Positions 4,760 to 32,000 of a stretch of 32,000 bases of DNA are shown piece after piece. Each line of letters opens with the position of its first letter. Within the stretch, counting starts at the first letter, position 1. The notes under the pieces were generated by a model. The model did not search any database. It was not told the origin of the DNA and saw only the letters and a program-made list of their open reading frames with translations. The DNA is from Paucimonas sp. (lineage in GTDB: Bacteria; Pseudomonadota; Gammaproteobacteria; Burkholderiales; Burkholderiaceae_D): positions 43,289-75,288 of the forward strand of contig JAKFBY010000019.1 of NCBI GenBank assembly GCA_036677325.1, written 5' to 3'. A program made the position numbers and the translations under genes.

Positions 4760-5030
4760 GCTTTACCGATATGTCTGATTCGTCTACGTCATTGAAGCTG
4801 CCGGCACGCATGCTGCAAAGCCGCTTCAGAAGCGCGACACGGCCAGTATAGGCAGTTAGCTTAGCCAGTTCAATGTAGTCATTGATCGATCGAATCGATC
4901 CGGATAACGCTGTCGGGCAGCACCTGTTATAACGAAACGGCATACCGGTCATCAGATAAATAAAGCAGACAGAATCAAAAGGCCAGCTTATAGTGATTCT
5001 GTCTCCTCCAAATCTCAATGAATTGGATTT

Positions 5031-5063
5031 AGCCCGCACCGCAAGGTTTGCGGGCTTTTTTTT
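5031..5063 (+). terminator. rho-independent terminator-like hairpin plus T-run
   Basis: agcccgca (5031-5038) pairs with tgcgggct (5049-5056) and is followed by a run of 7 T. It lies about 270 nt downstream of the aroG stop with no convincing ORF in between. Confidence 0.6.
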
Positions 5064-9139: not shown

Positions 9140-9215
9140 TGGCTCCCCGACCTGGACTCGAACCAGGGACCTGCGGATTAACAGTCCGTCGCTCTACCAA
9201 CTGAGCTATCAGGGA
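9140..9215 (-). tRNA. tRNA-Asn (anticodon GTT)
   Basis: The reverse complement folds by hand into a 76-nt cloverleaf. Acceptor is TCCCTGA/TCGGGGA, D-arm GCTC-AGTTGGTA-GAGC, anticodon loop CTGTTAA, T-arm CCTGG-TTCGAGT-CCAGG, discriminator G, with encoded CCA. Confidence 0.93.
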
Positions 9216-10526: not shown

Positions 10527-10643
10527 CGTGATAACATGAAAAGTTGGCTGCAAAACGGATGGGCAGCAGGATTGTCCAACGCACAAAACCACAAGTTTCA
10601 GCGCTGGATTGCAACTAGTTATTCTACCAAAGGTCGAACATTC

Positions 10644-12737
10644 ATGGCTGATTTATCCCAGGTTCCTACTGGCATTGACGAAACCCGCATCGTCACCTTT
10701 CCCGACTCGCCGTTTCAACTGTACCAGCCGTTTGCTCCGGCCGGTGACCAGCCCGAGGCGATTGCCAAGCTGGTCGAAGGCATTGAGGATGGCTTGTCAT
10801 TTCAGACACTGCTAGGCGTGACCGGCTCCGGCAAGACCTATACGGTGGCCAATGTGATTGCCCGCATGGGGCGGCCGGCGATCGTGTTTGCACCGAATAA
10901 AACGCTGGCGGCCCAGCTCTACAGCGAATTCCGCGAGTTTTTTCCGCGCAACGCCGTCGAGTATTTTGTCAGTTATTACGATTATTACCAGCCGGAAGCG
11001 TATGTGCCGCAGCGCGATTTGTTCATTGAAAAAGATTCATCGATCAATGAACATATCGAGCAAATGCGCCTGTCTTGCACCAAGTCACTGATGGAGCGGC
11101 GCGATGTGGTGATCGTGGCCACCGTGTCAGCCATTTACGGTATCGGTAACCCGAACGAATACCATCAGATGATCCTGACCTTGCGAGCCAAGGACAAGGT
11201 TAGTCAACGCGACCTGATTGCCCGGTTGATCCAGATGCAGTACAGCCGCAACGAAGTTGATTTCGCGCGCGGCACCTTCCGAGTGCGCGGCGATACCATC
11301 GATATATTTCCGGCCGAGCATGCCGAATTGGCGCTGCGCGTCGAAATGCTCGATGATGAAATCGACAATCTGCAATTGTTCGATCCGCTGACTGGGCGTG
11401 TGCGCCAGAAAATCCCGCGTTTTACCGTCTATCCCGGCTCGCACTATGTGACGCCACGTGAAACGGTGTTGCGGGCGATCGAATCGATCAAGGAAGAATT
11501 GCGCGAGCGGCTGGAGTTTTTCAGGAAGGAAAACAAGCTGATTGAAGAGCAGCGGCTTGAACAGCGTACCCGCTTTGACCTGGAAATGATGCAGGAAATC
11601 GGCTTTACCAAGGGTATCGAAAACTATTCGCGCCATCTGTCCGGTGCCAAGCCGGGCGAGCCACCGCCGACCCTGGTCGACTATCTGCCCCAGGATGCGC
11701 TGATGTTCCTGGACGAGTCGCACGTGTTGCTCGGCCAGTTGAATGGCATGTACAACGGCGACCGTGCGCGCAAGACCAATCTGGTCGATTACGGCTTTCG
11801 GCTGCCGTCGGCGCTGGATAACCGGCCGTTGCGCTTCGACGAATTCGAGGGCAAGCTGCGGCAAACGGTGTTCGTGTCGGCGACGCCGGCCGAGTACGAG
11901 AAAACCCATGCCGGACAGGTGGTCGAGCAGCTGGTGCGCCCGACCGGATTGACCGATCCGGTCATCACCGTGCGTCCGGCCAGTTCGCAGGTCGATGACC
12001 TGATGTCCGAAATTACCGATCGCATCAAGAAAAAAGAACGGGTGCTGGTCACTACGCTGACCAAACGCATGGCCGAGCAATTGACAGAATTTTTGAGCGA
12101 CAACGGTATCAAGGTACGTTATCTGCATAGCGATATCGATACCGTCGAGCGGGTCGAAATCATTCGTGATTTGCGACTGGGCACATTTGATGTGCTGGTC
12201 GGGATCAACCTGTTGCGCGAAGGCTTGGATATTCCGGAGGTGTCGCTGGTCGCGATTCTGGATGCCGACAAGGAAGGCTTTTTGCGTTCCGAGCGCAGCC
12301 TGATCCAAACCATTGGTCGTGCCGCCCGTAACTTGAATGGCACGGCGATTCTATATGGCGACCGGATTACCGATTCAATGCGCCGCGCCATTGATGAAAC
12401 CGACCGCCGCCGCGTCAAGCAGGTGGCATTCAACAAGCTCAACAACATTACGCCAATCGGTATCAAGAAAGAGATCCGCGATCTGATTGACGGTGTCTAC
12501 AATCCGCAGGAAGCACGGGAAGAATTGCAGGCAGCGCAAGAGCATGCAAAGTATGAATCGATGAGTCAAAAGCAAGCCAGCAAGGAAATCAAGCGCCTGG
12601 AAAAACTGATGGTCGATCATGCCAAGAATCTGGAATTCGAAAAGGCGGCCCAGGTACGCGATCAGCTGCATGTATTGAAGGAAAACCTGTTTGGCGCAGC
12701 AGGCGCGGATAATGTGATTCCGCTGGTCGGCAAGTAA
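10644..12737 (+). CDS. uvrB: excinuclease ABC subunit B
   Basis: Start trimmed to ATG 10644 (MADLSQV...), giving 697 aa. Features include GVTGSGKT (Walker A), [17 protein letters not shown], helicase motifs, and a C-terminal UVR domain ([13 protein letters not shown]). Confidence 0.97.
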
Positions 12738-12954
12738 TGGTCAGCAAATAGCGATCGGCAAGTAAGCGGGGTTGTCTCCCAATGGCAGTGCATCGCCATT
12801 ACCCACAGCCGATCGGTGGCTTGGCGCAAGAGATCGTTAGCGTAGGTAATTGATACTGCGCAAGCATGATTCTGGCAAGTCCGTGCGCCTCGGGTGCGTC
12901 AGGCAGCCGATGCCGTTACAATCGCGGTTTCAATGAAACCGTTGTCATATTCCC

Positions 12955-13749
12955 ATGCCTGACCGAATTCCTTCCGTCATCGTCGATATGCTCACGTTGG
13001 CCGACGTTTCTTGGCGACCGACCCTGTTGGCCGGCTTGGAAGCCGTCGCCAATGCCGCGCCTGATTATTTGCCTGAACTGGTCGCCGCCCCATACCTTCC
13101 CACCGATGGCAGGCTGTTTGCCGCATTTGCCCAACCTCTGCCGGCGGTGTGCTATGTGCTGGTTGGAGAAGGCCCGTATCCGCGACCGGAAAGCGCCACC
13201 GGGTTTTGTTTCATGGATGGCGCCGTGCAGTCATTATGGTCGGCAACCGGGTTATCCAAACCGGTCAATCGGGCGACTTCATTGCGCAATTTTATGAAGA
13301 TGTTGCTGGTCGCCGATGGCCAGTTGACGGCGGGTAATACATCGGGCGATGCACTGGGTGGCATTGCCGTCCAAGCGAATGCCGACGACTCTCTAATCAT
13401 TCAAACCTTGGCCGAATTGCAGGCTAACCTTACCCGGCACGGATTCCTGTTATTGAATGCGGCACTGGTATTTCGCCCGCATATTCCCCCGCTCAAGGAA
13501 GCCAAGGCGTGGCAACCTTTTTTGCAAACCGTTTTGTCAGCACTGGCCGATTATGCCGAGAAGCAAAATTCAGCGCCGCCTACCTTGGTATTGTGGGGAA
13601 AAATCGCCGAGCAATTAAAAGCGGTGCCCTCCAATGCACGCTTTCCGAAGGTGGTTTCCGAGCATCCGTATAACCTCAGCTTCATTCTCAATCCCGCCAT
13701 GCAGGCTTTGTTCGGCCCGATGCATCTGCTGCAAAAGCGCCCAAAATAA
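12955..13749 (+). CDS. uracil-DNA glycosylase family-1-like protein with altered active-site motifs
   Basis: Motif-by-motif resemblance to UNG: VLVGEGPYP (UNG: ILGQDPYH), FLLLNAAL (LLLN), LVLWGKIA, and EHPYNLS (HPSPLS). The start codon is uncertain (no clear SD). Confidence 0.6.
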   Translation: MPDRIPSVIVDMLTLADVSWRPTLLAGLEAVANAAPDYLPELVAAPYLPTDGRLFAAFAQPLPAVCYVLVGEGPYPRPESATGFCFMDGAVQSLWSATGLSKPVNRATSLRNFMKMLLVADGQLTAGNTSGDALGGIAVQANADDSLIIQTLAELQANLTRHGFLLLNAALVFRPHIPPLKEAKAWQPFLQTVLSALADYAEKQNSAPPTLVLWGKIAEQLKAVPSNARFPKVVSEHPYNLSFILNPAMQALFGPMHLLQKRPK

Positions 13750-13932
13750 TCTTCTGGCTGCATCATCAGGCTGCGCTGCCGGTTATTGATCCCGACAAGT
13801 GCGTCGGACTGCCGAACCTGAATTGCTGGCGGCATAGCGGGCACCATTGCCCACGTCAGGCCGGCCCAATCGGCCGGCTGGCAGCAGGCGTTCTGTAACC
13901 GCGTCAATTCGACCGGGACCGAGCTTGTAAAC

Positions 13933-13968
13933 ACGCCACTTACTCGATCCACGCCACTTACTTGATCC
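13933..13968 (+). repeat. tandem 2 x 18-bp direct repeat
   Basis: acgccacttactcgatcc is followed immediately by acgccacttacttgatcc (one mismatch), in an intergenic region. Confidence 0.7.
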
Positions 13969-14326
13969 GTCGCCTAATCTCACTTCCTTTTAAGAAAGCG
14001 CGGGATTTTGCGTCTTGTCAATTATGAGGCGTTCCCAGTGCAATTCTTGCCATGGCTACCTGATCTAAGAGTTGCATATGAAAATCGTAAGCATTTTGTA
14101 AAGCTTACTTTTCAGGTAAAGCTTGCGTTATTTTTTTGCCCATTTCACACAATTGCACTGTGGTAAGCCAGATCAGTCGATCTAGTGAGATGGGATCTTT
14201 TGGCGGGAAATAGGGGCGTGCAGTTGAAATGGCATGCTGTGTGGGCCACTTCACTTTTGTTGGTACAAAGGTTGCGTTGTAATTTTGACAGTGACAGTAC
14301 GTTCAGTCCAGCAAAGGGAGGAAGCG

Positions 14327-15262
14327 ATGAAGGCGACGCGGGTTGCAATTCTATCGTTGGGGTATTTATGCGCAATGGCCGTATACGCCGGCCAGCCCGA
14401 AGATGGCGCGCAGCAGACAAGTCAACCAGAAGAGCCGCTGGCTGACTATGACAGCATTGACTATAACGGGATTGACACCAATCCGACCTATTTTGCCTGG
14501 CAGGATGAGGTGGCTCCTAAAAAGGCAAATATCGCTGGTTTGCATTGGCAGTTCGACTCGGGTTTGCTCGACGGCGTGCACAAGATTGTTGGCTTTTGGC
14601 CCAGCGTGCACTGGCTGAATGCCAACAATTTTGGCACCAGCATGGCATCGCTGGGCTACACCTGGCGCAACTTGAAACTGGAAGGGGCTTTGTTCAGAGA
14701 GCGGGATGCGGAGCAACCACGCCATACCGAATTTCTCCGGCGCTATTCCACCGCCAAACGACTGTCGTACAAGTTTGGCTCGAACTGGGATTTTTATCTC
14801 AGTAGCCGTGCGCACAACAGCCCGGACCAACTGCGCCCGGACCTGAAGGTGCGCCGCAGGACAGCCGCGCTCGCTTACCATAATACGATTAATGGCAACC
14901 CATGGAATACGACGCTGGCAGTTGGGCGAGGTCGTGGTTTGTCAGGAAATTCCGGCACCATGTATCTGTTTGAATCGGCAATGCGTATTGGTCCAAAGCA
15001 CACTGTTTTCGGGCGCTTTGAACGAGCCGGCAATGATGAGCTATTCCGTGAGGAAGAGGCGTCGCGTCAGCGCAGCTATCAAGCCAATAAAATGACCATG
15101 GGCTATCTGTATGACGTGGCCAAGGTGGGCTCGGGCCGGCTCGGCATCGGCGGGCTGGTCAGCCGAAGGGCGGTGCCAGATGAACTGTTGCCTTACTATG
15201 GCAGTCGAAACACCTCGTATATGGTTTTTTTAAGGCTGCAGATGCAATTCGCCGCCAATTAA
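14327..15262 (+). CDS. exported hypothetical protein (possibly outer-membrane beta-rich)
   Basis: Start placed at ATG 14327 after AGGGAGGA. Signal peptide is MKATRVAILSLGYLCAMAVYA. The mature part has alternating aromatic/Gly-rich segments. No family recognised. Confidence 0.55.
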   Translation: MKATRVAILSLGYLCAMAVYAGQPEDGAQQTSQPEEPLADYDSIDYNGIDTNPTYFAWQDEVAPKKANIAGLHWQFDSGLLDGVHKIVGFWPSVHWLNANNFGTSMASLGYTWRNLKLEGALFRERDAEQPRHTEFLRRYSTAKRLSYKFGSNWDFYLSSRAHNSPDQLRPDLKVRRRTAALAYHNTINGNPWNTTLAVGRGRGLSGNSGTMYLFESAMRIGPKHTVFGRFERAGNDELFREEEASRQRSYQANKMTMGYLYDVAKVGSGRLGIGGLVSRRAVPDELLPYYGSRNTSYMVFLRLQMQFAAN

Positions 15263-24687: not shown

Positions 24688-25092
24688 TTAATGTGCGACT
24701 CGTTTCAGACCGTCTTTCAATAATTTCACATTGAAGTTAATTAATAACCCCAGTCTCATCCCCGTTAGTTTTAAATAGGTCATGAGTTGGGCATGATGGA
24801 TCGGAATCAGCTGTTCGACAGCTTTCAATTCAACAATGATGGAGTCCTCAATCACGAAATCGGCACGAAAGCCGCCATCGATCTTGATGCCATCGTAAAT
24901 AATTGGTAATTCCTTCTGCCGTTCAAATTTTATTTGATGCTTGCATAATTCGTGCGCCAGACATGCCTCATATGCACTTTCGAGCAAACCAGGCCCTAAT
25001 GCGCGATGAACGGAAAACGCACAATCCAGCAAGCGGCCGGATAATTCCTGATAAAGGATTTCTCCGTGGCCGCCGTGTTCGCCGTGGTTCAC
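24688..25092 (-). CDS. GxxExxY family protein (PD-(D/E)XK nuclease-fold, small)
   Basis: Start placed at GTG 25092, 6 nt after the prfB stop, giving 134 aa. It has the GLLESAY signature, DFVIEDSIIVELK (D...ExK-type), and a His/Gly-rich N-terminus VNHGEHGGHGE. The 229-aa ORF-track version overlaps prfB and is rejected. Confidence 0.72.
   Translation of the reverse strand: MNHGEHGGHGEILYQELSGRLLDCAFSVHRALGPGLLESAYEACLAHELCKHQIKFERQKELPIIYDGIKIDGGFRADFVIEDSIIVELKAVEQLIPIHHAQLMTYLKLTGMRLGLLINFNVKLLKDGLKRVAH
25062..25090 (-). repeat. right arm of the 29-nt inverted repeat (inside the 5' end of the GxxExxY CDS)
   Basis: The minus strand reads aaccacggcgaacacggcggccacggaga. Confidence 0.7.
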
Positions 25093-25097
25093 AAGAA

Positions 25098-26202
25098 TTA
25101 CACGCCCTGTTTCAGCGAGGCGGCGATAAAATCGTCCAGGTCGCCATCCAGCACGGCCTTGGTATTGCCGACTTCGAAGCCGGTGCGCAAATCCTTGATG
25201 CGCGACTGGTCCAGCACGTACGAGCGGATCTGGTGGCCCCAGCCGACGTCGGTCTTGGAGTCTTCCAGCTTTTGCTGCTCGCTCATCCGATTGCGCAATT
25301 CCAGTTCGTACAACTTGGCCTTCAGCATGTCCCAGGCTTCGGCACGGTTGCGGTGCTGGCTTCGGTCGTTCTGGCATTGCACCACAATGCCGGACGGCGC
25401 ATGCGTTAAGCGCACTGCCGAGTCGGTCTTGTTGATGTGCTGGCCGCCGGCGCCCGAGGCGCGGTAGGTATCGACCCGCACGTCAGCCGGATTGATGTCG
25501 ATCTCGATCGAATCATCGACTTCCGGATACACGAACAGGCTGCAAAACGAAGTGTGGCGGCCGTTGGCAGAATCGAACGGTGATTTGCGCACCAGCCGAT
25601 GCACGCCGGTCTCGGTGCGCAAAAAGCCGTATGCATAGTCGCCCTCGACCTTGATCGCGGCAGTCTTGATGCCGGCGATCTCGCCGTCGGACTGCTCCAG
25701 GATCTCGGCCTTGAAACCCTTGCGCTCGCAGTAGCGCAGGTATTGCCGCATGATCATCGAAGCCCAGTCCTGCGCCTCGGTGCCGCCGGCGCCGGCCGTA
25801 ATATCGATGAAGCAATTGTTGGGGTCCATCGGATTATTGAACATCCGGCGAAACTCCATGCCCTCGACCTGTTTTTTCAGGGCGTCGGCATCCTGCTCGA
25901 TCGCGACCAGCGTATCTTCATCCTGCTCTTCGCGCGCCATCTGGAACAGGTCGGAGGCGTCGCGCAGACCGGCTTCGATCTGCGTGAGCGACAGCACAAT
26001 GCCTTCCAGGGATTTCTTTTCGCGGCCGAGGTCCTGTGCCCGCTTCTGGTCGTTCCAGACGCCGGGATCTTCCAGTTCCGCGTTGACTTGCTCGAGTTTC
26101 TCTGACTTTGCTACGAAGTCAAAGATACCTCCGAAGTTCAACTTCGCGGGTGGTCAGGTCCGCCAGCAGGGCGGAAAGGGCGTTGAGGCGTTCTGCTTCC
26201 AT
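25098..26202 (-). CDS. prfB: peptide chain release factor 2, with programmed +1 ribosomal frameshift
   Basis: Frame 0 reads [27 protein letters not shown], then in-frame TGA (26119-26121). The +1 frame continues from GAC (26120-26118) into the 347-aa ORF, which has SPF and GGQ ([10 protein letters not shown]) motifs. Confidence 0.95.
26118..26133 (-). promoter_or_regulatory. prfB frameshift site: internal SD-like GGAGG plus slippery CUU UGA C
   Basis: The mRNA sense strand reads CGGAGGTATCTTTGAC. This has the same architecture as the E. coli prfB recoding site. Confidence 0.9.
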
Positions 26203-26405: not shown

Positions 26406-27596
26406 ATGACCAAGAATCTCAGTTTTATTAGCTTATTTTCCGGCTGTGGTGGACTTGACGTTGGATTTGTCAAGTCTGGTTTTACATGCAAGCGCGCATT
26501 CGATATCGACAAGAATGTGGTTGACGTCCATCGGTTAAACCTTGGCGAATCAGCAGTTGTGGCTGACCTTACTACGATTTCCACGTCTGAACTTCTTTCG
26601 AATGGAAAACCTACAGTAGTAATCGCCGGTTCGCCATGCCAAGGTTTTTCAACGGCAGGGAAGCGCCGGTTTGACGATCCCCGCAATTCGCTACTTTTGC
26701 ACGCGGGTCGCTTAGCTCTAGAAATCAAGCCTAAGGTATTTGTTGCTGAGAACGTTTCAGGAGCATTGTCTGGCGAGCATAAAACATACTGGCATCAGCT
26801 AGAGGCACTTTTGCGTTCGGACGGATATTCGACTGTCACTTTACGGCTCAATGCTTCACAGCTCGGGCTAGCACAGCTTCGATCTAGGATATTTATGATC
26901 GCCTGGAAGGGATCGAAAAATCCGGATTTAAGTTGCCCCGAGACTCTTCCAAGAACGCTTGGTGAAGTATTGGATGGTGTCGATGGCCTACCTCAACACG
27001 ACGAACTTCCTCTCGCAAAAACTTCCGCTCACTACCTTATATCACGGCGCATTAAACCAGGGCAAAAACTGTGTAATGTGCGAGGTGGAACTTCATCTAT
27101 TCATACTTGGGATATTCCAGAAGTGTTTGGTAAAACTACCGAGCAGGAGCGGTTAATTTTGAAGGCAACGATGAAGCTCCGCCGCACTGAGCGGCTGAGA
27201 GACTTCGGTGACGCAGATCCGGTCTCTATGGAGTCCCTGCGTAGGGAGTTCGGATCGCGCGTTGGCATCTTAGTAGAAGGGCTTATAAGCAAGGGATATA
27301 TGCGACGTATTGAAGAGCGCTTCGATCTCGCGAACACTTTTAACGGCAAATATCGCCGCCTCGATTGGAATTCGGTATCCCTGACTGTTGATACCCGATT
27401 TGGAGATCCCCGGTACTTCTTACACCCGTCAAAACATCGTAGCTTTACCGTGCGGGAAGCAGCTCGTATCCAAGGATTCCCCGATTGGTTTGTATTTCCA
27501 GGGCGACCTGTTGACAGCTATCGGATGATAGGTAACGCAGTGGCGCCTCCAATGGCCCAGCATATCTCCAGTATTGTTAGAGGTCTGCTAACCTAA
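26406..27596 (+). CDS. DNA (cytosine-5)-methyltransferase
   Basis: Start chosen at ATG 26406 (MTKNLSFISLFSGCGGLDVGF). Motif I is FSGCGG, IV is GSPCQGFS, VI is VAENV, VIII is QLRSRIFMIA, IX is FTVREAARIQGFPD, and X is GNAVAPPMA. A variable TRD lies between VIII and IX. Confidence 0.92.
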   Translation: MTKNLSFISLFSGCGGLDVGFVKSGFTCKRAFDIDKNVVDVHRLNLGESAVVADLTTISTSELLSNGKPTVVIAGSPCQGFSTAGKRRFDDPRNSLLLHAGRLALEIKPKVFVAENVSGALSGEHKTYWHQLEALLRSDGYSTVTLRLNASQLGLAQLRSRIFMIAWKGSKNPDLSCPETLPRTLGEVLDGVDGLPQHDELPLAKTSAHYLISRRIKPGQKLCNVRGGTSSIHTWDIPEVFGKTTEQERLILKATMKLRRTERLRDFGDADPVSMESLRREFGSRVGILVEGLISKGYMRRIEERFDLANTFNGKYRRLDWNSVSLTVDTRFGDPRYFLHPSKHRSFTVREAARIQGFPDWFVFPGRPVDSYRMIGNAVAPPMAQHISSIVRGLLT

Positions 27597-27667
27597 TACA
27601 ATGGTTTTCTACTGCACAATACTGTTATTCGGGAAGAAAAAATGTGTGACCATTGCCTGAAACTTAT

Positions 27668-28654
27668 ATGAGCATAATTAATGCATGGTCGACCTCTACG
27701 ATTGAACGTCAAAACACAACGTTCAAACTAAAACAATTGTACGAGCTACAAGCAATATTTTTGTTCGATCAATACGAGCCTGTTCTGGCGACTCCTGTTG
27801 AAGCGGCAATGCCATTTATAAATCGACTAGATCGCTGGCTGTCTTGTTTTGATGATCCCGATGATCAGTGGTCCGTGTTCCGCGCGTTTAAATATTTTTT
27901 CTTTATCGGAAAAGAAGAAACGGATGAGCTATATCGATGCGCGGTTAAGCATAAGCTCTTGCCTTGGTTGATTGAGCAAGAGGGGTTAGACATTTTTGAT
28001 TCAGACCTTTCTATGCGGCTCAATGATGTCGTTTCCCAGACTTGGCCGTGTCCAGTAACAGATAGCTTACGAATCAACAGCTTGTTGCACAGGACGCATT
28101 TAAAGGGACAAAGTCTAAGACCAGATTGGTTAAGTCTGAAGCAATTGGGCGACAAAGAGAAAATTGCTAGATATATCGCAAGCCGAAAGAATTCGAAAGA
28201 CGAGATAACCCCGATTAGATATCTCGTTTTGTTCGAGGATTTCGTCGGATCTGGCAGTCAGTGTGGGCGTGCAACGACGTTTGCCTTAGAGGCATTTGAT
28301 GGCCCAATTTTGTTAAGTCCATTAGTTGTTTGCCACCCCGGTGACGAACACCTCCGAGACCTTGCTTCTAAATCAAACGGTCGATTAACGTATGATCCTG
28401 TCGTAGTTCTTTCGGCTGAGTGCTTAGTCAGCGAAGTACCAGCTATTGGGGAGCCTTCTTCGTTTCCGTCTTTGCGGCTAGCGATACAAAACGGTTGTGC
28501 CAAAGGAGAATTCTCCGATCCTGCATTTGGATATGAGGGGGTGGGAAGCTTGGCTAGTTCATATAGCAACTGCCCAAACAATTCCCCGCCAATCTTCCAT
28601 GGAACTAGCGCCACTTGGCCGCATCCATTATTTCCACGAAAGGGGAGAGCTTAA
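27668..28654 (+). CDS. hypothetical protein with phosphoribosyltransferase-like (PRPP-loop) C-terminal half
   Basis: 328 aa from ATG 27668. IRYLVLFEDFVGSGSQCG (nt 28223-28261) resembles the type I PRTase PRPP-binding loop (four hydrophobic residues, two acidic residues, then a G/S/T-rich loop). The N-terminal ~190 aa are unassigned. The CDS itself is confident and the function is tentative. Confidence 0.6.
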   Translation: MSIINAWSTSTIERQNTTFKLKQLYELQAIFLFDQYEPVLATPVEAAMPFINRLDRWLSCFDDPDDQWSVFRAFKYFFFIGKEETDELYRCAVKHKLLPWLIEQEGLDIFDSDLSMRLNDVVSQTWPCPVTDSLRINSLLHRTHLKGQSLRPDWLSLKQLGDKEKIARYIASRKNSKDEITPIRYLVLFEDFVGSGSQCGRATTFALEAFDGPILLSPLVVCHPGDEHLRDLASKSNGRLTYDPVVVLSAECLVSEVPAIGEPSSFPSLRLAIQNGCAKGEFSDPAFGYEGVGSLASSYSNCPNNSPPIFHGTSATWPHPLFPRKGRA

Positions 28655-30675
28655 TGGTAGCGCTACGATTTGATAATCCGTTTCACGATCTTTGGGTAAC
28701 TGAAATTTTGGAATCGAACGCATTTGTTCAAATGTTCAGCCCTTTGCTTGTTGCAGACGCGGAAGAGCTATTCTCGAGCGGTCACGTCGTCGTTCGCGGT
28801 CGTCAAGGAAGCGGCAAGAGCATGTTGCTGAACCTTTTGGAGACGTCCACTCGGGTTGCATACGCAAATAATAGTAGAACAGAATTCCCAGCCCCACCCA
28901 AGCAGCGCACTTTCATATCTGCTGGAGTTCAGCTCACCAAGGAAAGCGCATCACTTGTCGCTGCTAGGGCAGAAGAACTCCCTGAAGACCAGCGCACAAA
29001 ATTAGTTGCGGCAAATTTTGCTGACTATCTAAATTCTTTGTTGTCGTCAGACCTTATACGAAATATATTGTACTTGGCAGCAGAGCAAGCTAAGAATTCC
29101 GCAATAATTCCTGAAGTGTCTGTCGACCTAAGTACTAATACTCAACAACGCTTCATTGATCTCTTGTACCAAGCAGAGGCTTGGAAAGGTTTTGTGCCAA
29201 AAGGGCTGCAGAGCCTAATGGACATTGGAACCGCGCTAGAGGGGCGAATTCGCTCCTACAAGAGCTATTTTAACTTTCAAACAGATGAGTTTCCTCGAGA
29301 GCTAGCAGTTTCACGCTCACCTGCAGGTGAGCCCATGGCGGAGCTAGCAGGTGCACTTCGTGACTCAGGTGTCTTGCCAAAGAACACGCTAGTACTCCTC
29401 AGGATCGATCAGCATGAGGAACTGTTTGAACTTGAGCGCCACACCAATCTTGGAACGGTCTTCCGTCAAGTGATCAACTCGGCACTTGCCAAGCGAGATC
29501 CTCGCGTAGCGTATCGTATTGGTACGAGACATTACGCATGGGATCGAGATGTAACCGCGTGGGGCAGTGGCGCCCCGTTAGAGGCGATGCGTGATTACAG
29601 CATTATCGACTTGGATCAAATTCTAAAGAGGGGAGAGCACACTAAAAGGTGGAAATTTCCTCTCTTTGCGGCAGACGTTGTAAGTAAACGTCTTGAGGCC
29701 GCGGGATTAAGGTTCCAGGGCAACTCTATGGAAATAATGTTTGGTAAGTCCTTGGAGCCAGCTGATAGAGCTAGGAGATATGTCGGCGACGCGAAATGCG
29801 CTCTTCAATTTGAAGCTGCCTGGGCGCCTGCGTGGAAAACGTATATAGAGAAACTCTGGAATGACGGTGATCCATTAGAAGCAAAATTCGGTGAGGTATG
29901 GCTGCGCCAGCAGGCACAAAAAAGACATAACGTTTCAAGCGATGGGACTCTGGCACATGATGCTCCATGGCGAAATAGTAAATGGTGGGCAAAAGAGCGA
30001 AACGAGATCGCGCTTATGCAACTTGCTGGCTTACGCCAGCAAGCACTAATTTGGTGTGGTGAACGCCAAATTATCGATTTGTCCGGTCACAACATCTTGG
30101 CGTTCATGACGATCTGCAAGTCAGTTTGGGCAACTTGGCAACGCCGCAATCCGGCAGATGCTGAAAAACGTGCAGCGCTACCAAATTTTTCAGTGGAAGA
30201 TCAAGTCATCGGTATTTCCGAAGCAAGTCAAATATGGTTTAAGAAGATCCAAGTTGGCCTCGAAGCGAACCAACGAACTCGCTTGGTAAGTGGGCTAGGC
30301 CAGTGGTTCAGGCGTCGAATGCTACGCGATCGGGCACTTTCGTATCCAGGTCACTCTGGATTTAGTTTGCTCGAAAGTGAGCTGTCTTCAGACCATTTTC
30401 TCGTGCCCATAATAAAGGCATGTCGAGACCATGGGGATTTAATGGAGTCGCAGCACACAACTAAGGAGAAAAACCAAGCCCAGCGCCTAAAGTGGTATCT
30501 ACATCCCTTGCTATGTCCTCTTTTTCGAATCCCGCACATTCGAACCAAGGAGCCAATCTACACATCGCTACATGAGCTTCAGGAAATTTACAATAACCAA
30601 CGACGGGCTGGGCCGACTGCGGATGGACCGATAAAGACGGAGTCAGAAGGTCAACTAGGCCTCCCTGGCTTTTAG
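28654..30675 (+). CDS. P-loop NTPase (AAA+/ORC-Cdc6- or STAND-like), 673 aa
   Basis: ATG 28654 overlaps the upstream TAA (TAATG) and follows AGGGGAGAG. Walker A is GRQGSGKS (28798-28821) and a Walker B-like motif is TLVLLRIDQHEE. The long helical C-terminal region has no nuclease motif I can recognise. Confidence 0.8.
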   Translation: MVALRFDNPFHDLWVTEILESNAFVQMFSPLLVADAEELFSSGHVVVRGRQGSGKSMLLNLLETSTRVAYANNSRTEFPAPPKQRTFISAGVQLTKESASLVAARAEELPEDQRTKLVAANFADYLNSLLSSDLIRNILYLAAEQAKNSAIIPEVSVDLSTNTQQRFIDLLYQAEAWKGFVPKGLQSLMDIGTALEGRIRSYKSYFNFQTDEFPRELAVSRSPAGEPMAELAGALRDSGVLPKNTLVLLRIDQHEELFELERHTNLGTVFRQVINSALAKRDPRVAYRIGTRHYAWDRDVTAWGSGAPLEAMRDYSIIDLDQILKRGEHTKRWKFPLFAADVVSKRLEAAGLRFQGNSMEIMFGKSLEPADRARRYVGDAKCALQFEAAWAPAWKTYIEKLWNDGDPLEAKFGEVWLRQQAQKRHNVSSDGTLAHDAPWRNSKWWAKERNEIALMQLAGLRQQALIWCGERQIIDLSGHNILAFMTICKSVWATWQRRNPADAEKRAALPNFSVEDQVIGISEASQIWFKKIQVGLEANQRTRLVSGLGQWFRRRMLRDRALSYPGHSGFSLLESELSSDHFLVPIIKACRDHGDLMESQHTTKEKNQAQRLKWYLHPLLCPLFRIPHIRTKEPIYTSLHELQEIYNNQRRAGPTADGPIKTESEGQLGLPGF

Positions 30676-30686
30676 GCGCGCATAAA

Positions 30687-31676
30687 ATGAGTATCAAACC
30701 GTGGGGATCTATTGATTGGTTGTTGCCGCGAACGAAGATACAGTCGTGGCATTTGATTACTTCTTCGTCTTTCGAGGAACGCTGTGCTGGTGTTTTGCAG
30801 CGTTTGCAGTCCAGCGAATTCAAGCTGTTGTCGACGACTCTATTACGTTTAACGAATCCACCTTCCGATTTCTGGACAGAAGCACAGCCTGCTATTAATA
30901 AAAATGTGGAGGAACTTCATTCTTTATTAGGTCAAGTTTCTGTTAACACGGTGGAAGGCAATTTGTTGGCTATGCCCAGTTCGCTTGTGCGATCGTCATC
31001 CCTTAATCCTGACAACTGTGAATCTGTAATTTTAGATATCACGACTATCCCTAAACGTTTCTTTCTGTTCGCGATGCAGCAGCTAATGCGCTCTGAAACA
31101 GTCAAAAATTTAGTAGTTACATATACGAAAGCTAAAGAATATCCGGAGGCCGCTTTATGCGAAAACGCGCTTCCTCCAACTGCACTTCAAGGATTTGTTC
31201 GCATGTCTGCTACTAAAGAAAGTTCGAGGTTGATCGTCGGAGTTGGTTATATGCCGCTTAGCGTTGAGGAAATTGTCGAGCAGGCGAAGAACACGAAATT
31301 AGACTTTATTTTCCCGTTTCCTCCTGCATCTCCGGCATTTCGTAGAAATTGGGATCTTCTATCGATGCTGATGCCTACGGACCCTCCACGCAATACCGAA
31401 ATTCACCGTGTACACGGAATGGACGCGTTTGAGATCTGCGAGCGTGTGAGGGCGTGGGGTGAGACTCGAGACTTGGATTTGTTGCCATTGGGCCCAAAAC
31501 CTCATGCACTTGGCATGGCTATGGCAGCTATGCGATTGGACGGCCGCGCTGAGGTTTTGTATTCGCAGCCGCAGGCTTATAGGCCAAACTATTCAACGGG
31601 TGTGGCGGTCGATTCGTCCGGACAACCGCAGATATCGGCTTATTGCCTAAAGCTAAATGGTCGTGATCAATTTTGA
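30687..31676 (+). CDS. hypothetical protein with Rossmann-like/CARF-like sequence signatures
   Basis: 329 aa, starting 11 nt after the NTPase stop. WHLITSSSFEE has a strand ending in S/T. SVILDITTIPKRFFLFAM fits [DN]x[ST]xxx[RK]. A second similar element is DLLPLGPKPHALGMAMAA. Confidence 0.7.
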   Translation: MSIKPWGSIDWLLPRTKIQSWHLITSSSFEERCAGVLQRLQSSEFKLLSTTLLRLTNPPSDFWTEAQPAINKNVEELHSLLGQVSVNTVEGNLLAMPSSLVRSSSLNPDNCESVILDITTIPKRFFLFAMQQLMRSETVKNLVVTYTKAKEYPEAALCENALPPTALQGFVRMSATKESSRLIVGVGYMPLSVEEIVEQAKNTKLDFIFPFPPASPAFRRNWDLLSMLMPTDPPRNTEIHRVHGMDAFEICERVRAWGETRDLDLLPLGPKPHALGMAMAAMRLDGRAEVLYSQPQAYRPNYSTGVAVDSSGQPQISAYCLKLNGRDQF

Positions 31677-31820: not shown

Positions 31821-32000
31821 TCACTCCCTTAAAAAAACATGCTCTTGATGCCATTTGATGAACTCAATCTCTGGCCTGAATTTTTCAGGCAATGCAATCA
31901 TCTTTCCTTCGATTCCTGATAACCATTCGGAAGAAAAAAGATTGCTTTTCCCCATTTCGATTTCTTTGGATACCTGCACCTTCAATTCGGTGGTTATAGT
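31821..32000 (-). CDS. partial ORF entering from the right edge (C-terminal 59 aa), unknown function
   Basis: An open frame from the window edge to TGA at 31821-31823 reads ...EIEMGKSNLFSSEWLSGIEGKMIALPEKFRPEIEFIKWHQEHVFLRE. It is AT-rich like the cassette. Truncated and unrecognised. Confidence 0.3.
   Translation of the reverse strand, partial: TITTELKVQVSKEIEMGKSNLFSSEWLSGIEGKMIALPEKFRPEIEFIKWHQEHVFLRE

Follow-up and report, generated by a model that had tools for sequence, protein, structure and literature searches.

Gene Organization of the Locus

The stretch analysed here, referred to below as the window, comprises 32,000 nucleotides of a Paucimonas sp. contig (JAKFBY010000019.1). The element in question is a cassette of four genes, g1 to g4, with a length of 5.3 kb, which likely represents a modification-linked conflict system of four components whose effector is a phosphoribosyltransferase (PRTase). 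The genes are arranged on one strand as follows.

26406..27596, + strand: g1, Dcm-type DNA cytosine-5 methyltransferase (C5-MTase), 396 aa from ATG
27668..28654, + strand: g2, PRTase-CE, PRTase-like protein, predicted effector, 328 aa
28654..30675, + strand: g3, ORC-CDC6-like AAA+/STAND-type P-loop ATPase, predicted sensor or switch, 673 aa
30687..31676, + strand: g4, stand-alone CARF-like protein, predicted nucleotide-ligand sensor or regulator, 329 aa

According to the listing of open reading frames (ORFs), g1 and g2 are separated by 71 nt, g2 and g3 overlap by 1 nt, and 11 nt lie between g3 and g4. The ATG of g3 at position 28654 is located within a TAATG at 28652-28656, which overlaps the stop codon of g2. 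This layout of four + strand ORFs had been described in an earlier note on the window, and its coordinates were reproduced exactly. A second assembly, the Logan contig L001 (9973 bp), was found to contain an identical cassette with four identical gene calls. From the more than 60 same-length homologues found for each of them, the four genes are judged to be real.

The base composition of the cassette was compared with that of the adjoining uvrB-to-prfB housekeeping block. In sliding windows the GC content is 0.45-0.49 for the cassette versus 0.53-0.60 for the block, and the GC content at third codon positions (GC3) is 0.43-0.46 in g1-g4 versus 0.75 in lysS and 0.79 in prfB. The composition of the cassette is foreign, as the earlier note had held; the patchiness that it had also ascribed to the cassette was not seen, since the low GC is uniform. 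A promoter-like site of prfB was located at 26265-26236 on the - strand, 141 nt from the start codon of g1, close to the ~140 nt estimated before. Promoter and terminator scans gave fewer matches than in shuffled controls, while Rfam and repeat scans of the cassette returned nothing relevant and no RNA was found in the 26-32 kb region. The remainder of the window is housekeeping in nature (DAHP synthase, aminotransferase, UvrB, Hsp70, LysS and PrfB).

The Four Predicted Proteins

Profile searches placed g1 among the C5-MTases, with matches to PF00145 (1.1e-58), TIGR00675 (5.5e-45) and the PADLOC MTase_II profiles (4e-71), in addition to the PADLOC DruM and DrmMII profiles. The protein carries motifs I, IV (PC), VI (ENV), VIII, IX and X, with VIII and IX flanking a target-recognition domain, and the FxGxGG, PCQ, ENV, QxRxR and GNAV motifs are invariant across 23 orthologues. 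The nearest solved structures are 3g7u, M.HaeIII and M.HhaI, the alignment being restricted to the catalytic motifs; the target-recognition region (approximately residues 200-340) found no match among solved structures. Within the family, conservation of this region equals that of the catalytic core, so that a single DNA specificity is probably shared by all members. Moreover, g1 is the most conserved protein of the four, with a mean pairwise identity of 0.48 compared to 0.42, 0.37 and 0.33 for the others, which suggests that its specificity is not diversifying, unlike that of many restriction-modification (R-M) or BREX systems. An NCBI-sourced call of g1, made on a 75-kb contig that also encodes exact copies of the LysS and g3 proteins of the window, has only 233 aa and starts at M164 (MIAWKGS), without the N-terminal part that is present in both the window DNA and the Logan contig. 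As these two encode the full 396-aa protein with motifs I, IV and VI, the shorter call is probably a gene-calling artefact.

The match of g2 to PF24390 (PRTase-CE) covers the entire profile (positions 1-253 of 253; 3.7e-23; 83.1 bits versus a cut-off of 27). All five PADLOC profiles named PRTase_III-A were matched as well, the best of them with 4.4e-13; they stand for the effectors, PRTase-like proteins, of type III-A retrons (Mestre et al. 2020, PMC7736814). The loop for phosphoribosyl pyrophosphate (PRPP), LVLFEDFVGSGSQ, is conserved and corresponds to E190-D191-F-V-G-S-G196-S-Q198 (EDFVGSGSQ, 190-198), and a second motif is found at G288-x14-P303-N-N-S-P307. A loop of the EDFxG[ST]GxQ type and the motif N-[CT]-P-[ND]-N are present, with minor variation, in all 23 genome orthologues. 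Gx14PNNxP has been reported as a hallmark of retron PRTase effectors alongside the PRPP motif VVILTDTIGSGNQ (PMC12746101). In the case of Retron-Eco11, PRPP-loop mutants lose defence, and activation of the system cuts PRPP by ~50% with abortive infection (PMC12746101). No match of g2 to the PADLOC ShosT/PsyrTA profiles was obtained at E<=1; for the NCBIfam model DS32_1 the match was confined to the last 34 residues, with 19 bits versus a cut-off of 250. Likewise, a profile search of g2 against PDB sequences gave no relatives.

The third protein, g3, was matched to PF24389 (ORC-CDC6-like) with 3.3e-39 and 135.5 bits versus a cut-off of 27, over profile positions 27-567 of 571. Weak matches to AAA_22, AAA_16, NACHT and nSTAND1 were also obtained. 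Its Walker A (G49-R-Q-G-S-G-K55-S) and Walker B (D252-Q-H-E255, in IDQHEE) motifs are invariant, and 73 columns in total are invariant among the 23 orthologues.

For g4, neither Pfam nor NCBIfam provided a match and no relatives were found by a profile search against PDB sequences. The PADLOC profile PDLC01923 "CARF6--CARF_CARF_CARF" matched residues 2-307 with 3.8e-56, and eleven further CARF profiles of PADLOC gave weaker matches. The AlphaFold2 (AF2) model, with a predicted local distance difference test score (pLDDT) of 91, consists of two tandem Rossmann-like alpha/beta domains. An invariant D117-x-T-xxx-K123 follows directly after beta4 of domain 1, and an invariant G269-P-K271 follows beta4', the equivalent strand of domain 2. 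Further invariant residues of g4 are P122, P210-F-P212 and R219-R220. The D117-x-T-xxx-K123 element fits [DN]x[ST]xxx[RK], the CARF signature reportedly given by Makarova et al. in 2014. An exhaustive profile search showed that the g4 family comprises 1192 clusters at 50% identity, 246 of them at E<=1e-30; the best 150 of the 1192 clusters are stand-alone proteins of ~330 aa or shorter fragments.

Judged from their sequences, all four proteins retain intact motifs for catalysis and ligand binding. The assignments of the earlier note held up throughout, namely the complete C5-MTase motif set of g1, the PRPP-loop-like motif of g2, the Walker A/B NTPase of g3 and, by profile, the CARF-type Rossmann character of g4. 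Its observation that g2-g4 lack motifs of a restriction nuclease, helicase, PglZ or Vsr agrees with searches of Pfam, PADLOC and NCBIfam, in which no profile of these kinds was matched. Its idea of a nucleotide-derived substrate fits the kinship of g2 with the retron type III-A effectors.

The PRTase fold might alternatively act on DNA itself, through N-glycosidic cleavage at unmethylated sites or through binding of single strands, with the ORC-like ATPase loading g2. The layout of the cassette, with the MTase first and the downstream genes tightly coupled, resembles that of R-M systems. PRTase domains occur in contexts of DNA uptake and repair and may bind single-stranded nucleic acid, as in ComFC-type proteins (PMC5512222), and the PRTase effectors of retrons have winged-helix DNA-binding partners (PMC7736814). 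Nevertheless, the PRPP/ribose-5-phosphate loop of small-molecule PRTases is strictly conserved, the sole characterised relative alters the level of PRPP and not DNA, and no DNA-glycosylase-like or nuclease fold was detected by profile and Foldseek searches. We therefore consider a DNA-acting g2 quite unlikely, and an attack of g2 on the nucleotide pool is preferred.

Conservation and Co-Inheritance

Genomes were scanned with a profile of g3 homologues, using one genome per GTDB species, and the gene content of each locus was determined by tblastn with the four window proteins. This provided 29 loci in about eight phyla. The order MTase-PRTase-ATPase-CARF on a single strand was found in 25 of these species-representative loci, and the remaining four (L023, L026, L028 and L030) are cut by the end of a contig or locus; there is no locus among the 29 in which a gene is missing where the DNA is present. 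The C5-MTase is adjacent in 28/28 loci with upstream DNA and in four additional metagenome or genome contigs (L001 and L031-L033). The same four genes are present in L031 and L032 (JGI) and in L033 (Sulfuricella denitrificans skB26), and in L031 they overlap or abut. The earlier note had staked its proposal on co-occurrence in other genomes, and the trio of g2, g3 and g4 does travel together, with a C5-MTase next to it wherever upstream DNA exists.

The taxonomic spread is wide. Betaproteobacterial loci are from Herbaspirillum and Paraburkholderia, and gammaproteobacterial ones from Pseudomonas, Dyella, Stenotrophomonas, Vreelandella, Nevskia and Salinibius. Further loci belong to the Acidobacteriota (Bryobacterales), the Verrucomicrobiota (including Akkermansia and Luteolibacter), the Chloroflexota (Limnocylindrales) and the Actinomycetota (Thermoleophilaceae and Solirubrobacteraceae), and the cassette is also present in Planctomycetota, Armatimonadota and Kiritimatiellia. 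The cassette is also carried by cultured bacteria such as Pseudomonas syringae, Paraburkholderia and Sulfuricella denitrificans skB26. In a word-indexed search, 137 homologues of g3, 170 of g2 and 61 of g4 were counted; in UniRef the homologues carry names such as "ORC-CDC6 family AAA ATPase" and "PRTase-CE domain-containing protein".

Comparison of the pairwise-identity matrices from the 23 complete loci revealed that g2 and g3 are the most strongly correlated (rho 0.92), followed by g2-g4 and g3-g4 (0.76-0.77) and by g1 with the others (0.54-0.58). Mantel p was <=0.001 for all gene pairs. The four genes are inherited, and also transferred, together. Clustering of 608 flanking ORFs from the 29 loci produced no fifth conserved gene, the flanks being variable. 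Taken together, the four genes are a strictly conserved, co-inherited and horizontally mobile unit.

Genomic Neighbourhood

In Paucimonas the cassette lies between prfB and a cluster of HNH, Fic and Phd-ParE genes. The HNH_2 gene (267 aa, PF13391) lies 144 nt past g4 and is convergent with it, occupying window positions 31821-32000 on the - strand and continuing to L001 (6054-6857). It is followed at L001 6869-8735 by a Fic/DUF4172 gene and a Phd/ParE toxin-antitoxin pair, and together with the HNH_2 gene these make up a defence/toxin-antitoxin island. A Fic homologue is located downstream of the cassette in L009 and L011 as well.

The position of the HNH_2 gene on the opposite strand immediately downstream of g4 could mean that two unrelated units lie side by side, namely a type II R-M pair of C5-MTase and convergent HNH_2 and a separate PRTase/ATPase/CARF trio. 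The HNH_2 gene was found only in L001, and by tblastn in none of the other 29 loci, while the MTase is adjacent in every locus where it could be (see above). In addition, the distance matrix of the MTase co-varies with those of the trio, and the overlap or abutment in L031 involves all four genes. A chance juxtaposition with an MTase/HNH R-M pair is effectively refuted by the ubiquity of the MTase and the co-variation of the matrices, and the two-unit explanation is left with a very small probability. As it is conserved in no other locus, HNH_2 was rejected as the cognate nuclease and does not belong to the system.

A single neighbour recurs, a Vsr gene (PF03852), which was observed next to or near the cassette in five of the 29 loci (L018, 13122-13568; L030, 562-1080; L010, 14892-15341; L015, 16838-17314; L024, 16230-16655). 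A Vsr gene adjoining the cassette is expected if the MTase is active and forms 5-methylcytosine (5mC).

The cassette sits in variable islands rich in mobile elements. A resolvase, insertion sequence (IS) elements and an integrase surround it in L031, with an Mrr-type gene nearby. In L033 (AP013066.1, 138317-156326) the Tn7-like genes tnsA, tnsB, tniB and tniQ are located beside it, and the cassette may be cargo of the transposon. A gene for a weak D12-class (Dam-like) methyltransferase is located immediately upstream of the C5-MTase in L033, and a WYL regulator, an HNH gene and a ThiF/E2/multi-ubiquitin cluster were observed in the vicinity. Two of the loci carry insertions within the cassette. 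In L015 an IS66 element (TnpB_IS66 and IS66 transposase, ~12340-14620) is located within g4, and in L028 a 1.4-kb insert (~10577-12039) containing a 465-aa ORF without Pfam match splits g3; the MTase is intact in both cases. Several genes of L027 and L029 look frameshifted, which may reflect indel errors in the assemblies.

The mobile surroundings are also compatible with a function other than defence. The cassette, being on or beside mobile elements, might serve selfish addiction, with the methylase as antidote and the trio as a toxin released once methylation fails, or it might be a mobile epigenetic or nucleotide-salvage operon; the strict linkage with an MTase recalls the way in which R-M systems cause post-segregational killing. 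When g3 was searched by tblastn against 72,556 PLSDB plasmids and 50,697 INPHARED phages, no match was obtained, a result that one would not expect of a module serving addiction alone. The neighbours (HNH, Fic, Phd/ParE, Mrr, WYL and ubiquitin-like genes) are typical of defence islands, and salvage leaves the AAA+ ATPase and the methylase unexplained. Addiction and defence are not mutually exclusive, and a purely non-defensive role appears rather improbable.

Comparison with Known Systems

Retrons of type III-A, of which Eco11 (III-A3) is an example, consist of a reverse transcriptase, a non-coding RNA and an effector. The clade of this effector, with its hhhh-[E/T]D-x-x-GSG-x-Q loop and the Gx14PNNxP motif, is common to g2. 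The Eco11 effector is kept inactive by DNA-binding partners, and its activation leads to PRPP depletion and abortive infection (PMC12746101). In contrast, the sensor side of the present cassette is made up of an AAA+ ATPase, a CARF-like protein and a C5-MTase. There is no reverse transcriptase domain in the cassette proteins and none is conserved in the neighbourhood of the 29 loci, and no msr/msd RNA was found by Rfam in the 26-32 kb region.

The similarity with BREX type 1 is of another kind. Both are methylation-linked, lack a classical restriction nuclease and are built around an ATPase of the ORC/Cdc6-like AAA+ clade. In BREX this is BrxC, which scaffolds a methyltransferase complex that binds non-methylated sites of phage DNA (PMC12839542). 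The MTase of the cassette is a C5 enzyme while that of BREX is an N6-adenine methyltransferase, g3 is half the size of BrxC, and the cassette adds a PRTase and a CARF-like protein. PglZ, BrxA, BrxB and BrxL are absent, and no BREX profile of PADLOC was matched. More generally, g2-g4 gave no match to the BREX, DISARM and Druantia profiles of PADLOC, and the signature combinations of these systems (PglZ with BrxC, DrmA/B, and DruA-E) were not found.

With type II R-M and Dcm-Vsr systems, the cassette shares a complete C5-MTase and, in five loci, an adjoining Vsr gene; there is no restriction endonuclease in the cassette. In ShosTA/PsyrTA, a PRTase-fold protein likewise disturbs nucleotide metabolism as the output of defence, with different partner proteins. 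One reported example is the defence toxin ShosT, which has a PRTase domain and interferes with purine metabolism (PMC11961720).

The likeness to the CARF signalling of type III CRISPR-Cas systems rests on the CARF-superfamily profiles matched by g4 and on the D-x-T-xxx-K element after beta4. The differences are that g4 is not fused to an effector and that, in structure, universal-stress proteins are its nearest matches. Neither the window nor the conserved neighbourhood was found to contain a CRISPR array, Cas10 or another cyclase. Lacking a cyclase, the cassette is not a system of cyclic-oligonucleotide signalling.

PUA-Calcineurin-CE-HAD offers a further parallel, as it is also a methylation-dependent, nucleotide-depleting abortive infection system with an effector of the "CE" class (PMC12871103). 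It differs in having a PUA sensor and phosphoesterase effectors, and in using the housekeeping Dam of the host instead of a methylase of its own.

By these analogies, the cassette seems most like a hybrid of modification-linked systems (BREX, R-M) and abortive infection by PRTase effectors (retron III-A), and is a member of neither.

Proposed Mechanism

From sequence, we infer that the MTase marks the host as self and that the trio acts in defence. In the mechanism proposed here, g1 would write 5mC at one fixed motif of the host chromosome as a self-mark. The ATPase g3, probably in a complex with g2, would read the status of DNA by recognising unmethylated sites on incoming DNA and would turn the effector on through binding or hydrolysis of ATP. 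Of the four genes, g2 and g3 show the tightest co-evolution, and they are translationally coupled. A nucleotide ligand bound by g4 would gate or tune the switch. Once turned on, g2 would consume PRPP or otherwise attack the nucleotide pool, and phage replication would stall through abortive infection or growth arrest, with no cleavage of DNA. The role of g4 is the weakest link of the model, since no enzyme for a dedicated second messenger is encoded. The reading is favoured by the fixed and co-inherited gene set, the precedents of Retron-Eco11 and BREX, the intact motifs, the foreign GC3, the mobile flanks, the Vsr neighbours and the insertions in g3 and g4 that spare the MTase.

Several observations weigh against it. 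Though the AF2 model of g2 has a pLDDT of 92, its best PDB folds, type I PRTases, were matched weakly (Foldseek E 2e-3, template modelling score 0.3-0.46), and the chemistry of the PRTase clade is known only indirectly, via the depletion of PRPP in one retron. A profile search of g3 against PDB sequences revealed no solved relative. The ORC/Cdc6 label of g3 derives from the name of the Pfam family and from the weak AAA_16 and AAA_22 matches, and both its binding to DNA and its reading of methylation are put forward here as proposals. As to g4, its model was matched by Foldseek to tandem universal-stress proteins first (4r2k, 4.7e-7) and to the CARF protein Cam1 (8t66) with 4e-3, so the predicted structure points to stress proteins and not to CARF as the closest fold. 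Alignment of its N-terminal and C-terminal halves by hhalign detected no duplication at the level of sequence. Finally, neither the four proteins nor their conserved neighbours include a cyclase or another signal-making enzyme. With both sides considered, the abortive-infection mechanism as a whole falls somewhat on the probable side; the broader assignment as a modification-linked conflict system is held with the higher confidence given at the outset.

The lack of a signal synthase could also be explained by an alarm derived from the methylome. A phage that degrades the host DNA would release 5-methyl-dCMP or a 5mC-containing oligonucleotide, which would be sensed by g4, and g3 and g2 would then deplete nucleotides. 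There is a precedent in PUA-Cal-HAD, which is activated by m6-dAMP from Dam-methylated host DNA and depletes deoxynucleoside triphosphates (PMC12871103). Such an alarm accounts for the presence of a methylase, a nucleotide-sensor-like g4 and a nucleotide-targeting g2 without a signal synthase, and it agrees with g1, including its target-recognition region, being the most conserved protein of the four. A conserved specificity is, however, equally expected if a separate sensor must match the MTase. The binding of methylated nucleotides by g4 is conjecture, the role of the large ATPase is less obvious, and the alarm would be effective only against phages that degrade host DNA. We regard this explanation as unlikely. 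Rather doubtful, too, is a system that writes its own alarm in the strict sense, in which the 5mC made by its own methylase gives 5-methyl-dCMP that is sensed by the CARF-like protein, or its variant, in which the PRTase-fold protein serves as a restriction glycosylase on DNA that lacks methylation. The self-marking mechanism with DNA-status reading by g3 is preferred.

Novelty and Significance

In agreement with the earlier note, which could name no defence system for this set of genes, no system-specific model of PADLOC v2.0.0 or NCBIfam 20.0 was matched by the cassette, and g3 and g4 matched none. The searchable literature, with the exception of surveys likely to have named PRTase-CE and CARF6, yielded no description of the combination of MTase, PRTase, ORC-like ATPase and CARF-like protein. 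No experimental study of the system was found in the searchable literature.

Two of the cassette proteins, on the other hand, have dedicated Pfam families with consecutive accessions, PF24389 and PF24390, and the CARF6 profile of PADLOC fits g4 end to end. The term PRTase-CE reportedly goes back to a survey on effectors that target nucleotides (Nicastro, Burroughs, Iyer and Aravind, NAR 2023), and CARF6 is attributed to Makarova et al. (NAR 2020). The individual components have thus been catalogued computationally already, and the cassette itself probably has been too. The word "undescribed" in the earlier note is probably overstated, as these pre-existing Pfam and PADLOC families cover parts of the cassette.

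If the proposed defence function is true, the cassette would join self/non-self marking by methylation, as in R-M and BREX, with the attack on nucleotide pools by a PRTase, as in retron III-A and ShosTA. This would be achieved without a nuclease, and the CARF-like sensor would stand alone, outside a CRISPR context. As the cassette is compact, widespread from Proteobacteria to Actinomycetota and Planctomycetota and present in culturable hosts, the proposal is directly testable. Such work could show the role of ORC/Cdc6-type ATPases in methylation-linked immunity, BREX included, and the ligand that CARF6-type proteins sense. The value of the finding is tempered because computational surveys have very probably come across the cassette already.

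Other Features of the Window

The prfB gene (26202-25098, - strand) contains the classical programmed +1 frameshift, with the site at ~26124-26118. As read from the sequence, its first frame is short, with RRYL as its last residues, and ends with CTT TGA C after an AGG-rich stretch, and the second frame has 347 aa. Between lysS and prfB, an ORF at 24688-25377 (- strand) encodes a PD-(D/E)XK domain of the PDDEXK_3 family (PF13366, 3e-43, residues 111-227). Its N-terminal 110 residues resemble read-through, so the actual start is probably internal. An Rfam match to "Betaproteobacteria toxic small RNA" (RF02278, 59.9 bits) was observed at 5000-5063 on the + strand and speaks for a betaproteobacterial origin of the window, and a tRNA is located at 9143-9215 on the - strand.

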